18,579 nucleotides of DNA from a virus (taxonomy: Duplodnaviria; Heunggongvirae; Uroviricota; Caudoviricetes): the IMG/VR virus record IMGVR_UViG_3300039366_000108. One strand, given 5' to 3'. The notes under the pieces are model-generated. The model had not been told where the DNA came from. It worked only from the letters and a program-made list of their open reading frames with translations, and made no database searches. Below are positions 834-17,792 of the stretch, piece by piece; the stretch's first letter is position 1, and the number at the start of each line of letters is the position of its first letter. Made by a program: the position numbers and the translations under genes.

Positions 834-907
834 CGATATAGCTCAGTTGGTAGAGCAGCGCATTCGTAATGCGAAGGTCGTAGGTTCGACTCCTATTATC
901 GGCACCA
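832..907 (+). tRNA. thrW: tRNA-Thr (anticodon CGU), thrW-like; first 2 nt fall inside the N-run
   Basis: Visible 834-907 reads CGATATAGCTCAGTTGGTAGAGCAGCGCATTCGTAATGCGAAGGTCGTAGGTTCGACTCCTATTATCGGCACCA, with D-loop, anticodon loop containing CGT, T-loop GGTTCGA and CCA end; location just downstream of proA. Confidence 0.85.
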
Positions 908-909
908 TT
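891..909. repeat. attL core: tRNA 3'-end segment tcctattatcggcaccatt, repeated at attR
   Basis: 18 of 19 nt identical (one G missing) to 17775-17792. Confidence 0.55.
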
Positions 910-998
910 CTAACGTCTCCCCAAGTCTACTCAAGTATTTAAAAAACTCTTATAATCCGCATGTTAGCGCCCCTTTTAGTCTTTTGATGTCTACTTAA

Positions 999-1073
999 GT
1001 ACCCCAAAATCTACAGTCAATTGGGGGTACTTTTGGGGGTATTTGCTGTTCGGTTTAGTGGAGGTACCCCCAA
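999..1073. promoter_or_regulatory. Left arm-type site cluster: GTACCCCAAAA (999-1009), TTGGGGGTAC+TTTTGGGGGTAT (1021-1042), inverted GTACCCCCAA (1064-1073) abutting the int start
   Basis: Repeated GGGGGTA-containing motifs in both orientations between the tRNA and the int start codon; the identical 22-mer recurs at 17693-17714. Confidence 0.5.
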
Positions 1074-2288
1074 GTGAAACTCAATGCCCGTCAAATAGAC
1101 ACTGCCAAGCCAAAAGAGAAGGCTTACAAGCTGGCTGATGGTGGTGGTCTGTATCTCTTGGTAAAACCTAGTGGAGGAAAATATTGGCGCTTCAAATATC
1201 GTGTAGCTGGTAAAGAGAAGCTGTTAGCACTAGGTGTGTATCCTGAAGTTACCTTGGCTGATGCTCGTGCAAAACGTGAAGAAGCTAAAAGGGGGATCGC
1301 TGGGGGTATCGATCCGATGGAAGCGAAACGAGAGGAAAAGATTGCCCGGGAAACGCAGTTAAACAACACCTTCAAAGATATTGCCCTTGAGTGGCACAGC
1401 AGCAAATTAAAAAAATGGTCTGCTGGTTATGCTTCAGACATCCTCGAAGCCTTCAACAAAGATGTGTTCCCTTACATTGGCAAAAAACCAATCGCCGAAA
1501 TCAAACCACTTGAACTGCTGAATGTGCTGCGGCGCATCGAGGGGCGCGGTGCTACCGAAAAAGCCAAAAAAGTGAGGCAGCGATGCGGGGAAGTTTTCCG
1601 CTATGCAATTGTCACTGGACGTGCTGAGTATAACCCTGCACCGGATCTCACCAGCGCGATGCAAGGTCATGAATCTAATCATTATCCTTTCCTCACAGCC
1701 AAAGAATTACCTGATTTTTTCAAGGCATTGTCCAGTTACTCAGGAAGTGCATTGGTTGTTATGGCGGCTCGTCTACTGATTATCACCGGTTTGCGGACTG
1801 GCGAACTGCGCGGTGCATTATGGGATGAAATCGATCTCAACAAGGCTATCTGGGAGATACCTGCTTCACGGATGAAAATGCGTCGCCCTCATGTGGTGCC
1901 TTTGTCTAAGCAGGCTCTTTCGCTTATTGGGCAGATTAAAGAATTAACTGGCAATTATCCGCTTATGTTTCCCGGCCGTAATGATCCAAGGAAAACAATG
2001 AGCGAGGCTAGCATAAACCAAGTATTTAAACGCATCGGCTATAACGGAAAGGTTACTGGTCATGGATTCCGGCACACCATGAGCACCATTTTGCATGAGC
2101 AGGGCTATAACACCGCGTGGATAGAGACACAGCTCGCACACGTCGATAAAAACTCAATTCGTGGCACATACAACCATGCGCAATATCTGGATGGTCGCCG
2201 GGAGATGCTCCAGTGGTATGCCGACTATATGGATTCGCTCGAGCATGGCGGAAATGTGGTGCATGGTGAGTTCGGAAAATGCGGGTGA
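1074..2288 (+). CDS. Tyrosine recombinase/integrase, P4-type (IntA-like)
   Basis: GTG start 9 nt after GGAGG; N-terminal arm-binding-like region (KLADGGGLYLLVKPSGGKYWRFKYR); C-terminal catalytic motifs HGFRHT...LAH...RGTYNHAQY; transcribed away from the tRNA. Confidence 0.9.
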   Translation: MKLNARQIDTAKPKEKAYKLADGGGLYLLVKPSGGKYWRFKYRVAGKEKLLALGVYPEVTLADARAKREEAKRGIAGGIDPMEAKREEKIARETQLNNTFKDIALEWHSSKLKKWSAGYASDILEAFNKDVFPYIGKKPIAEIKPLELLNVLRRIEGRGATEKAKKVRQRCGEVFRYAIVTGRAEYNPAPDLTSAMQGHESNHYPFLTAKELPDFFKALSSYSGSALVVMAARLLIITGLRTGELRGALWDEIDLNKAIWEIPASRMKMRRPHVVPLSKQALSLIGQIKELTGNYPLMFPGRNDPRKTMSEASINQVFKRIGYNGKVTGHGFRHTMSTILHEQGYNTAWIETQLAHVDKNSIRGTYNHAQYLDGRREMLQWYADYMDSLEHGGNVVHGEFGKCG

Positions 2289-2386
2289 CTGGTTGAGTAT
2301 ACAGTAGTAGACTTTGAGCACCTAAAAAGGCTGATGCAAACAGAGCTGGCTCGGCCTTAACATTAGACCGCTTGAAGGGGGAGAAT

Positions 2387-3103
2387 ATGCCAATTGTGGA
2401 AAACATTCCTGACTTATCCCACTGGCGAACAGTACAGGAGTTTTCTATCACCCAGGCCGCTTTATTGTTGGCCGGAATTGATCCTTATGATTACCCTACT
2501 CTTGAACATGTCAGAGATAATAAACATGAACGTTGGAAAATGGCATGGGGGTTGGCTAATGGAATGGTAACAGCCATCCGTCGTGGTGTCTTAACTCCTG
2601 TTGAATGTACCTCTGAAATAGTTGAATACGATAATTGGGGAAATGTTTGTGATATTGAGTACAAACGTCTGACATCAGCGCAACTGACCGATCGTGCATA
2701 TGAGATAAGCAAGGATAAAACTTTAATTAGTCGCCATTCTTTATATGAGTGGATAAAAAATGAGAGCGTTGATTTTGCGAGATGCCCTCGCCCTATACCT
2801 GTTAAGGAAGTTAATCCGCCAGCAATCATTGAATCATCTCATCAGGTAATTAATCCTGACGAGTATTTGTGTACTTATGGGCATAAGAGTGATGGGTTGG
2901 AGTATGTGCAGGATGCTATAAGAGAACTATGGTCGACGTATGACCCAGATGACCCACAGACGGCTCCGACAGAGCATGAGGTACTTGAATATTTGAAAAA
3001 AAGGGGGGCGGGTTCTAATGTTGCTAGGGCTGTGAATCTGATTTTAAGGCCTGAACATCTGAAGCGTATTGGTAGAAGACCAAAAAAACAAAAAGTTAAA
3101 TAG
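2387..3103 (+). CDS. Hypothetical protein (238 aa) between int and alpA
   Basis: ATG preceded by AAGGGGGAG; ORF track extends to TTG at 2372; lysine-rich basic C-terminal tail; no family recognised. Confidence 0.55.
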   Translation: MPIVENIPDLSHWRTVQEFSITQAALLLAGIDPYDYPTLEHVRDNKHERWKMAWGLANGMVTAIRRGVLTPVECTSEIVEYDNWGNVCDIEYKRLTSAQLTDRAYEISKDKTLISRHSLYEWIKNESVDFARCPRPIPVKEVNPPAIIESSHQVINPDEYLCTYGHKSDGLEYVQDAIRELWSTYDPDDPQTAPTEHEVLEYLKKRGAGSNVARAVNLILRPEHLKRIGRRPKKQKVK

Positions 3104-17001: not shown

Positions 17002-17005
17002 TTAA

Positions 17006-17033
17006 GCAAGGGTGTTATTATCAACACCCTTGC
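17006..17033 (+). terminator. Stem-loop terminator directly after the 532-aa gene
   Basis: Perfect 11-bp stem GCAAGGGTGTT / AACACCCTTGC with 6-nt loop, starting 5 nt after the stop codon. Confidence 0.55.
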
Positions 17034-17692
17034 TCATAGTCTTACAATATTAAATGTTGTGTTTTTTATTTATATATTTTATTGCCCATCAAGCTATTAA
17101 TTCATCTCGTTGTTTGAGATAGGTTGAGCATTTGTATTTTTTTATCAATTTTATCTGTATGAGCTTAAGCAGCTTCAATAATATCTGCGTTAAATTACGC
17201 TTCATTCAGAGACGTGCTTGCTATTGACATGTAATCCATGTGCAACAAGATTCCTGCCATAACTTATGCGTTTCAGATCCGAATCATGGACTGCTTTAAG
17301 TCATTTTTGTAGGGAAAACATGTTCACATGTCAGCACTGATTTGTTTCATCATATCCACTATCTCGAATTTCTGTGTCGATAGATGAATGCAGACGGAAA
17401 TATGTGAATTTTGTGCACGCTCTGCTATTAAGCGAAAACGAGCGTGGATATATCAACTAATAATTGCCCTCATTAACATAGGTGGTGGCGGGTATAATCT
17501 CTGTAACCCAGTTGTTCGTGACTACCCACCTCGTCAAATTTTCACACCCGCGAAATAAAAAATACTTCACGCTAGTGGTTATCCTTGGGCATCCACCAGC
17601 CCTTCATCATTGCCTGCCGGTGAGGCTGAGGCTCGAAGAAAAAGAGTGCTAGATAGTCGATTTTTGCCTGGTTTGGGATAAGGGAAAATTTA

Positions 17693-17714
17693 TTGGGGGT
17701 ACTTTTGGGGGTAT
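17693..17714. repeat. Right arm-type repeat TTGGGGGTACTTTTGGGGGTAT, identical to 1021-1042
   Basis: Exact 22-bp direct repeat of the left arm site, about 60 bp inside attR. Confidence 0.5.
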
Positions 17715-17774
17715 CTATAAAAATGAAATATGAAAATATCATTAAATATCAATGTATTTTTTGTTTATGTTTTG

Positions 17775-17792
17775 TTCCTATTATCGCACCAT
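17775..17792. repeat. attR core: tcctattatcgcaccatt, near-copy of the tRNA-Thr 3' end
   Basis: 18 of 19 nt match to 891-909 with a single-G deletion. Confidence 0.55.

Follow-up and report, generated by a model that had tools for sequence, protein, structure and literature searches.

Closest described systems and the element at thrW

The closest proven relative of the element described here is EcCIMP1, a phage-inducible chromosomal island (PICI) of Escherichia coli MP1, which occupies the proA-thrW site, has the att core TCCTATTATC and was shown to excise and circularise only in the presence of its helper Kapi1 (Pick, Stadel & Raivio 2025, PMC11773190). Both int and alpA are needed for excision and transfer, transduction by Kapi1 occurs at a very low frequency, and the island was reported as SatelliteFinder Type C with no recognised defence system (PMC11773190). 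For a second described island, EcCICFT073 (Fillol-Salom et al. 2018/2019, PMC6092414, PMC6739421), it was shown that the pri-ori segment replicates and that its origin is functional (PMC6092414). The element in question lies within an 18,579-nt stretch of DNA (IMG/VR record IMGVR_UViG_3300039366_000108; hereafter the window), which is 100% identical to positions 784150-802727 of E. coli O78:H4 APEC E123 (NZ_CP126955.1). It is most probably (rough probability 0.8) a Gram-negative PICI that its own tyrosine integrase has inserted at the 3' end of the tRNA-Thr gene thrW, and by sequence it is a mosaic of an EcCIMP1-type integration and regulation module and an EcCICFT073-type replication module. 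As a mosaic it adds a new member to a known PICI family and is no new kind of element; the potentially new part is a conserved late module.

Insertion into the 3' end of thrW

The RefSeq gene order across the window is proA, tRNA-Thr, 27 protein genes, a LysR remnant (yagP-type pseudogene) and paoD. The right flank, which an initial annotation of this DNA had described as core-like with YagP-like and XdhC/PaoD-like genes, indeed consists of the yagP-type LysR remnant followed by paoD. The target site, attachment cores and integrase arm sites are as follows.

832-907, + strand: tRNA-Thr(CGT), thrW (ARAGORN; Rfam tRNA, 60.7 bits; RefSeq), whose 3' end is the integration target
891-909, + strand: attL core TCCTATTATCGGCACCATT, the intact tRNA 3' end
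1020-1042, + strand: P' arm, doubled motif ATTGGGGGTACTTTTGGGGGTAT, +131/132 nt from the core start
17692-17714, + strand: P arm, where the doubled GGGGGTAC motif recurs, 79-81 nt upstream of the attR core
17776-17793, + strand: attR core TCCTATTATCG-CACCATT, a tRNA fragment with one G deleted

This tRNA is the single one found in the window by ARAGORN and Rfam. The direct repeat of 19/18 nt encloses an insert of 16,885 bp, counted from core to core, in agreement with the initial annotation as to the site, the size of about 16.9 kb and the one-base difference between the repeats, which is the G missing in attR; of the limits given there (891-17792), the left one holds, whereas the right one falls one base short (17793). 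Many genomes contain, uninterrupted and 100% identical, a synthetic empty site of 617 nt that was composed of the proA end, thrW and the sequence to the right of attR; at least 80% of this junction is covered at a single place in 948 of 5,426 complete E. coli genomes. Because the empty junction occurs uninterrupted in other genomes, the repeat marks the true insertion ends, and the boundaries of the insert are proven beyond the mere improbability of such a repeat arising by chance; this is the comparison with insertion-free genomes that had been proposed at the outset. The junction is empty in only 17% of the complete E. coli genomes, and in about 83% the thrW site is occupied or rearranged, which therefore supports the earlier claim that proA-tRNA-Thr is an integration hotspot. 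Moreover, the repeat, whose absence from other copies had been named as a counter-argument, flanks four other copies with different cargo, EcCIMP1 among them.

The deletion of one G in attR, in the acceptor-stem region, is shared by three other copies, and a larger deletion is present in a further relative (L004). Deletions in the tRNA fragment at attR were described as typical of PICIs at tRNA-Thr and as absent from prophages (PMC10111431), and the one-G loss observed here fits this PICI-specific damage. Unlike attR with its missing G, the attP of a circular relative (L013, see below) carries GG.

Inside both ends of the element lies a perfect 23-nt repeat, ATTGGGGGTACTTTTGGGGGTAT (1020-1042 and 17692-17714). 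The motif GGGGGTA has nine matches in the window (1.1 expected), five of them at the two arms. The arms, offset from the core start by +131/132 and by -79 to -81 nt, have identical positions in five elements including EcCIMP1, and the doubled arm motif described for helper-embedded PICIs (HE-PICIs) lies upstream of the core by 81 ± 2 nt and downstream of it by 132 ± 2 nt (PMC10111431). A third, inverted arm copy (TACCCCC, 1065-1071) stands directly before the GTG start codon of the integrase gene at 1074 and is conserved in all five elements, suggesting that the integrase may repress its own gene.

Three further observations concern the flanks. A run of 68 N (766-833 of the window) hides the spacer between proA and thrW together with two bases at the start of the tRNA; the source genome has ordinary intergenic sequence in this place. 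The last 22 nt of proA including the stop codon (ATTCGTGCGTAAATAAAACCGG, 705-726) recur with 21 of 22 matches at 6967-6988 in a small open reading frame (ORF) of the element, a match longer than expected by chance in 18.6 kb. Finally, the LysR-type gene (17918-18256, - strand) lacks its N-terminus on the side of paoD and not on that of the island; because the missing end faces paoD, the truncation is unrelated to this insertion, and it is found in empty-site genomes too.

Gene content and mosaic composition

The gene content was assessed by scanning 25 ORFs with Pfam, PHROGs, NCBIfam and PADLOC. From left to right, the element encodes int, a variable gene, alpA, antA/B, a leftward pair, an Icd-like gene, small ORFs, a DUF4222 gene and a primase-helicase, followed by an iteron origin, a ProQ/FinO gene, a PerC gene, a late zone and cargo; the + strand carries 20 of the 24 annotated genes, and every backbone gene is intact in this copy. 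The features from int to perC are listed here.

1074-2288, + strand: tyrosine integrase, 404 aa (Pfam Arm-DNA-bind_3, Phage_int_M and Phage_integrase), adjoining the tRNA
2387-3103, + strand: 238-aa protein in a variable slot between int and alpA
3359-3556, + strand: AlpA-family helix-turn-helix (HTH) regulator (Pfam Phage_AlpA, 69 bits)
3635-4483, + strand: AntA/AntB (Bro-network) antirepressor-like protein (Pfam AntA, PHROG anti-repressor)
4507-4532: strong terminator, associated with the leftward pair
4898-5461, - strand: leftward pair, a 66-aa protein (4898-5098) and a YlcI/YnfO-family protein (5156-5461) (phrog_21027, phrog_6522, NCBIfam YlcI_YnfO_N)
5793-6014, + strand: Icd-like protein (NCBIfam phage_ICD_like)
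6007-7008, + strand: four overlapping small ORFs (PHROGs)
7013-7303, + strand: DUF4222 protein (Pfam)
7300-9105, + strand: Pri-Rep, 601 aa (Pfam D5_N, DUF5906 SF3 helicase and Pox_D5; phrog_864, E 1e-156)
9133-9471, both strands: replication origin with GGTAGAC(A/G)GTT iterons in two clusters (9133-9233 and 9314-9471) and an A+T-rich centre
9489-10019, + strand: ProQ/FinO-domain protein (Pfam)
10016-10303, + strand: PerC-family regulator (Pfam)

The integrase beside the tRNA, AlpA, the Ant-like protein, the primase/helicase and the iteron origin had all been named in the initial annotation and are recovered by Pfam, PHROGs and the iteron count; its list is right as far as it goes and omits the 238-aa gene between int and alpA as well as the leftward pair at 4898-5461.

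The element is regarded as a mosaic because int, alpA, the att site and the arms match EcCIMP1, while the block from the Icd-like gene to Pri-Rep and the iterons match EcCICFT073. With EcCIMP1 it shares the thrW site beside proA, the att core, the doubled GGGGGTAC arms at the same offsets, the one-G deletion in attR and the presence of Icd-like and DUF4222 genes, and the proteins are identical to 97% for the integrase, 83% for AlpA, 60% for AntA/B and 49% for PerC. With EcCICFT073 it shares, in the same order, the leftward small gene with YlcI/YnfO, the Icd-like gene, the small ORFs, DUF4222, Pri-Rep, the origin and PerC. Identities within this central block range from 34 to 74% (Pri-Rep: 44% over 98% of its length), the iteron core is common to both origins (GGTAGAC/GGTAGAT in EcCICFT073), and PerC is 49-52% identical to the PerC proteins of EcCIMP1 and EcCICFT073. 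It is these two sets of matches, the 97% identical integrase and the Icd-to-primase block with its iterons, that sustain the early view of the element as a satellite and not a full prophage.

In Pri-Rep, residues 491-592 are homologous to the origin-binding domain of P4 alpha (PDB 1KA8, E 6e-19) and the helicase core to PriRep of SaPI5 (7OLA, E 9e-10). GGTAGAC has nine exact matches in the window (0.8 expected for the whole window), and eight of them lie within 9133-9466, directly 3' of the Pri-Rep gene. In E. coli UTAK-5 (L011, 7452-12900) the same element with GapS1 has its D5-type primase replaced, exactly after DUF4222, by a RepA-family helicase, a clean case of replication-module exchange; this copy additionally carries an SDH Clp-fold protease and remnants of IS1 and IS66.

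AlpA is presumed to be the master activator and excision factor of the element. The interval between int and alpA varies and holds other proteins in three relatives (L003-L005); the 238-aa protein encoded here has no match in Pfam, PHROGs, PADLOC or NCBIfam. The genes at 5793-7303 form a rightward operon running into the primase gene. The leftward pair is divergent from this Icd-to-primase operon and the N-terminus of the YlcI/YnfO protein is ribbon-helix-helix-like; the pair might be a repressor module. A 512-aa ORF on the + strand (4476-6014), which ends in the Icd-like gene, was rejected as a gene: it has no family match, opposes the two leftward genes with their strong PHROG matches, is not kept as a reading frame in relatives and is almost certainly spurious. 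A promoter scan gave 34 sites with 34.8 expected and thereby no signal, and an Rfam scan with E values up to 0.1 returned the tRNA only, with no P4-CI/C4-type immunity RNA or other non-coding RNA.

Distribution and a circular relative

At least 80% of the backbone (5100-13320) is present in each of 87 complete E. coli genomes, and fragments of it occur in 1,700; some sibling copies have a frameshifted perC, DUF4222 or antA/B. Two contigs, L012 and L013, were retrieved from IMG/VR with the predicted attP junction as query. L013 is 12,914 bp long with an exact terminal overlap of 77 bp, the usual signature of a circular assembly (12.8-kb circle), and its attP junction reads P' arm, core (GG), P arm. 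It encodes an integrase (92% identical), AlpA, an Icd-like protein, DUF4222, a primase (47%), the 55-aa ORF, an HTH protein (39%) and cargo. At the sequence level, this supports the existence of circular forms among elements that have this integrase and att system.

The second contig (L012, IMG/VR UViG_2778261575_000007) was rejected as a circle, as it shows a tandem arrangement with a truncated second integrase, like that of strain MP1. Its GapS1 element has a right end 98% identical to 12167-17793 of the window, followed by a second att core and the truncated integrase (8916-9429), and the layout in strain MP1 is the same (L002, 8200-8720). Remnant islands are left behind by tandem occupancy of thrW.

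The late zone and the 175-aa HTH protein

Between perC and the cargo lies a late zone with the following features.

10438-11580, + strand: 380-aa lipoprotein (lipobox LTGC), conserved, with a terminator after it (11594-11612)
11645-11968, + strand: 107-aa hydrophobic protein, membrane-spanning segments predicted from sequence only
12031-12231, - strand: 66-aa ORF
12247-12414, + strand: 55-aa ORF, 62% identical to an ORF of EcCIMP1
12411-12683, + strand: 90-aa ORF
12783-13310, + strand: 175-aa protein with an N-terminal Xis/BldC/MerR-type winged HTH and an alpha/beta C-terminal domain without known fold
13311-13575: array of about seven AAAGTGTCAA(C/G) copies, one of them inverted, directly after the HTH gene; candidate binding array

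The 175-aa protein belongs to a family of 112 homologue clusters, all in Enterobacterales, and a tblastn search of phage records gave no homologue; the family is limited to satellites. Its N-terminus has weak matches to HTH_17 and phrog_57. The sole head-and-packaging signal in the element is the weak match of its first 42 residues to a small-terminase family (E 5e-6), over a stretch that is a mere helix-turn-helix. The AlphaFold2 (AF2) model is confident (predicted local distance difference test, pLDDT, 87). In Foldseek, only the N-terminal HTH was matched, to Pukovnik Xis and BldC (E 0.2-1), no match was obtained for the C-terminal domain, and RppC was absent from the top fold matches. Just 3' of the homologous HTH gene, clusters of AGTGT[CA]AA are present in five different elements, including ones from Enterobacter and Klebsiella and the circular contig. 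In two Klebsiella pneumoniae loci (L006 and L007), the HTH homologue ends a small island of int, DUF4222 and a Toprim-D5 primase that abuts tail genes of an E217-like myovirus and in L007 is preceded by a 180-aa fragment of a major capsid protein; this looks like a satellite embedded in the late region of a helper prophage.

The HTH protein together with the AAAGTGTCAA array is hypothesised to be the best candidate of the element for a packaging or late-regulation module. More specifically, and with a tentativeness that leaves it more probably wrong than right, the HTH protein and its AAAGTGT[CA]AA array could form a new packaging-specificity module, i.e., a functional analogue of Rpp or TerS with its own pac- or cosB-like site. 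If so, it would allow a large group of Type C PICIs from several genera, devoid of terS, cos and capsid genes, to hijack helpers that do not use a lambda- or P2-type cos.

Across genera, the lipoprotein is the most conserved of the late genes, and its homologues in Enterobacterales, 60-90% identical, fall into more than 320 clusters; a tblastn search of phage records gave no homologue. Its AF2 model is mediocre (pLDDT 65) without a significant PDB fold match, and shows two helical hairpins and an alpha/beta C-terminal domain. The protein could have a surface or exclusion function.

The cargo slot and GapS1

The right end of the element, from the repeat array to the P arm, carries the cargo.

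13695-14276, + strand: 193-aa hydrophobic protein, membrane-spanning termini predicted from sequence only
14326-14508, + strand: 60-aa ORF
14543-14800, - strand: 85-aa ORF
15403-17001, + strand: GapS1 anti-phage defence gene (NCBIfam NF047931, full-length, 435.5 bits with a cut-off of 320)

No family match in Pfam, PHROGs or PADLOC was obtained for the ORFs at 13695-14800, and this first part of the cargo is missing from some relatives. For GapS1, assignment to the family is indicated by the score above the cut-off and by the intact PD-(D/E)xK motif (D322, D335-S-K337), in which the D-to-K spacing of 15 residues equals that of the essential D313 and K328 of Vibrio GAPS1. The PADLOC release used (2023) gave no match for GapS1, a family which that release does not contain. 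GAPS1 of Vibrio was described as a single-protein defence system that is triggered by a phage capsid protein and causes cell dormancy (bioRxiv 10.1101/2023.03.28.534373), and it was first found on Gamma-Mobile-Trio (GMT) islands, which are marked by three GMT proteins. The sole recombinase of the present element is a P4-type arm-binding integrase, and its backbone is PICI-like. With a G+C content of 0.31, gapS1 differs from the backbone (0.46). We infer from the sequence features that this allele is active as a defence gene.

The same slot is filled differently in relatives: it holds PARIS AriA/AriB in L003, the candidate system PDC-M38A/B in L013, DUF4747 with an unknown protein in L004 and two unknown proteins in L005. 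The right end of the element is a site of cargo exchange, and GapS1 joins the defence genes borne in the PICI cargo slot, which is of relevance for the phage resistance of avian pathogenic E. coli. At the left border of the slot, a stretch …AGAAAACTT…GGATGCATCTGTCAAAACTTG…CGGGGATTTTTG is present in L005, L013 and partly in L003 and absent from the window (cf. 13575-13700); it could mark a site of recombination or a promoter of the slot.

Classification and alternative explanations

For Gram-negative PICIs, a size of about 10-20 kb, an own integrase and a specific att site with direct repeats are expected, and all those hallmarks that can be checked in sequence are present here (Fillol-Salom et al. 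2018): size, an own att site, the order int-alpA-pri, an iteron origin, the lack of structural genes and the presence of genes that phages do not share. In the 25 ORFs, no Pfam, PHROG or NCBIfam match was obtained for capsid, portal, large terminase, tail, lysis (holin, endolysin), psu, sid or delta, and the initial statement that capsid, terminase, psu, sid and delta are missing can be retained. The distinguishing genes of capsid-forming PICIs (cfPICIs; own capsid, portal, head-tail connectors, terL) were likewise not detected. A megablast search of the element in 50,697 phage records gave no match, while small ORFs of the element do match PHROG families of unknown function. No helper phage with a common cos or pac region was identified in these records by nucleotide matches to the whole element or to 12700-13700, a search that did not include the prophages of APEC E123.

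Several results weigh against the PICI reading. The lambda cosN with up to two mismatches and the P2/P4 cos with up to three mismatches are not found in the window, and neither is the arrangement underlying Rpp-type redirection in EcCICFT073, an Rpp homologue beside a lambda-type cosQ/cosN. No terS, Rpp or capsid-morphogenesis gene was recognised in the element, and the 175-aa HTH protein is without similarity to RppC in the fold search and in a comparison with PDB sequences, which returned noise only. By the scheme of SatelliteFinder, in which Type A and B need at least four of the five core components (int, regulator, pri-rep, capsid morphogenesis, terS), three of five are present, giving Type C when counted with Pfam and PHROGs and not with the profiles of SatelliteFinder itself; Type C is a low-confidence class according to the authors of the scheme (de Sousa et al. 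2023, PMC10085698). The replication protein is unrelated to that of EcCIMP1 (TOPRIM-DUF927, 918 aa, there; D5-type, 601 aa, here), and the late zone matches neither EcCIMP1 nor EcCICFT073. Finally, L013 is a relative and not the element of the window, and its 77-bp overlap is an assembly signature and no direct observation of a circle.

The most probable of the alternatives is a PICI-derived island that integrates and excises but whose mobilisation by phages is lost or very poor, i.e., one that has lost its packaging module and now acts chiefly as a chromosomal carrier of genes for defence and regulation. Next to the missing cos, terS, Rpp and capsid genes and the three of five components, it would be in line with the frameshifts in sibling copies and with the very low transduction of EcCIMP1. 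However, the backbone genes of this copy are all intact, a related element was assembled as a circle, cargo and replication modules have been exchanged among the 87 genomes that carry the backbone, and the late zone, with the HTH protein and its array and the lipoprotein, has been kept across genera, which argues for selection. We therefore consider such an immobilised island unlikely. Given that SatelliteFinder sets Type C aside on purpose, yet the element is close to proven PICIs, satellite counts based on Type A and B are likely underestimates.

The initial annotation had left the choice between a PICI and a P4-family satellite, of which the former stands and the latter does not. A P4-family satellite exploiting a P2-like helper might be suggested by the tRNA integration, by int, AlpA and a primase-helicase with a C-terminal domain homologous to that of P4 alpha, and by a match to the P4-family primase model TIGR01613. 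This match, however, scores 95.8 and thereby below the cut-off of 108.7, alpha is matched only in part, psu, delta, sid and epsilon have no match in any ORF, no P2/P4 cos is present, and the gene order and homologies fit PICIs. With three defining P4-family genes and the cos missing, this explanation is refuted and retains next to no probability.

Equally improbable is a decayed cryptic prophage at the thrW hotspot. The tRNA site is used by other elements, as seen from the low share of empty junctions, and the Ant, Icd-like and YlcI/YnfO regulators are phage-like, but neither structural or lysis genes nor their pseudogenes are present, the phage records gave no nucleotide match, size and architecture are conserved in 87 genomes, and transcription is mostly one-way, as in PICIs. 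An integrative mobilisable element moved by conjugation, which the ProQ/FinO-domain protein encoded beside the origin might bring to mind, is scarcely credible, as no ORF has a relaxase, coupling protein or type IV secretion system domain (Pfam) and the backbone is homologous to PICIs mobilised by phages.

Proposed life cycle

For a Gram-negative PICI of this composition, the following course can be envisaged. The element would be silent in the chromosome until lytic growth of a helper phage switches on alpA. AlpA and the integrase would then act on attL and attR, recombining them at the TCCTATTATCG(G)CACCATT core, with the arm-binding domains of the integrase presumably bound to the doubled GGGGGTAC motifs at about -81 and about +132. 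The resulting circle would be replicated by the Pri-Rep helicase bound to the GGTAGAC iterons just 3' of its own gene, and the DNA of the element would be packaged into particles made by the helper. In the integrated state, the slot at the right end would express GapS1, and the cell would arrest upon sensing of a phage capsid protein; PerC and the ProQ/FinO protein might act as accessory regulators. For this copy, helper-phage induction, AlpA dependence and replication are what we infer from its relatives.

Comparison with known systems

Satellite phage P4 resembles the element in its int, its AlpA-type regulator, an SF3 helicase with a homologous origin-binding domain, tRNA integration and a defence hotspot, and differs from it in possessing psu-delta-sid, epsilon and a P2-type cos and in its gene order. 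EcCICFT073, which provides the counterpart of the replication module, has an integrase only 25% identical and another integration site (ycfD-phoQ in the paper, which is roxA-phoQ in RefSeq); a major capsid homologue, a head decoration protein, RppA and two lambda-type cosN around rppA are found there and not in the window element. EcCIMP1, beyond its different replication protein, has P22-like ejection, DUF2824 and a second alpA as genes of its own, instead of which the window element carries ProQ/FinO, the lipoprotein, the 175-aa HTH protein with its array, and GapS1.

The four-zone plan described for HE-PICIs and Gram-negative PICIs (Williams laboratory 2023, PMC10111431) comprises an integration zone (int, alpA), a dynamic Bro-network zone (AntA/B), a zone for replication and a late zone, again dynamic, all of which can be recognised in the present element. 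The attP geometry, in which a doubled motif stands both upstream (about 81 nt) and downstream (about 132 nt) of the core, is shared with HE-PICIs as well, and the damage to the attR tRNA fragment is common to the tRNA-Thr PICIs of that study and the window element. The arm motif is GGGGGTAC here and TGTATTGC in HE-PICIs, the target is a tRNA here and a prophage late gene there, and the P4-CI/C4-type immunity RNA of the plan was not detected here by Rfam.

Finally, an island of Enterobacter hormaechei (L008), known from its sequence alone, differs in its cargo, a KAP NTPase, and in that no primase homologue was detected in the portion examined. It has counterparts of the integrase (80%), AlpA (70%), the lipoprotein (88%), the 107-aa protein (68%), the 193-aa protein (53%) and the HTH protein (36%), and an AAAGTGT[AC]AA array follows its HTH gene as well. 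The conserved late module of HTH protein, array and lipoprotein is the place in which the packaging and interference mechanism of this sub-family should be sought.

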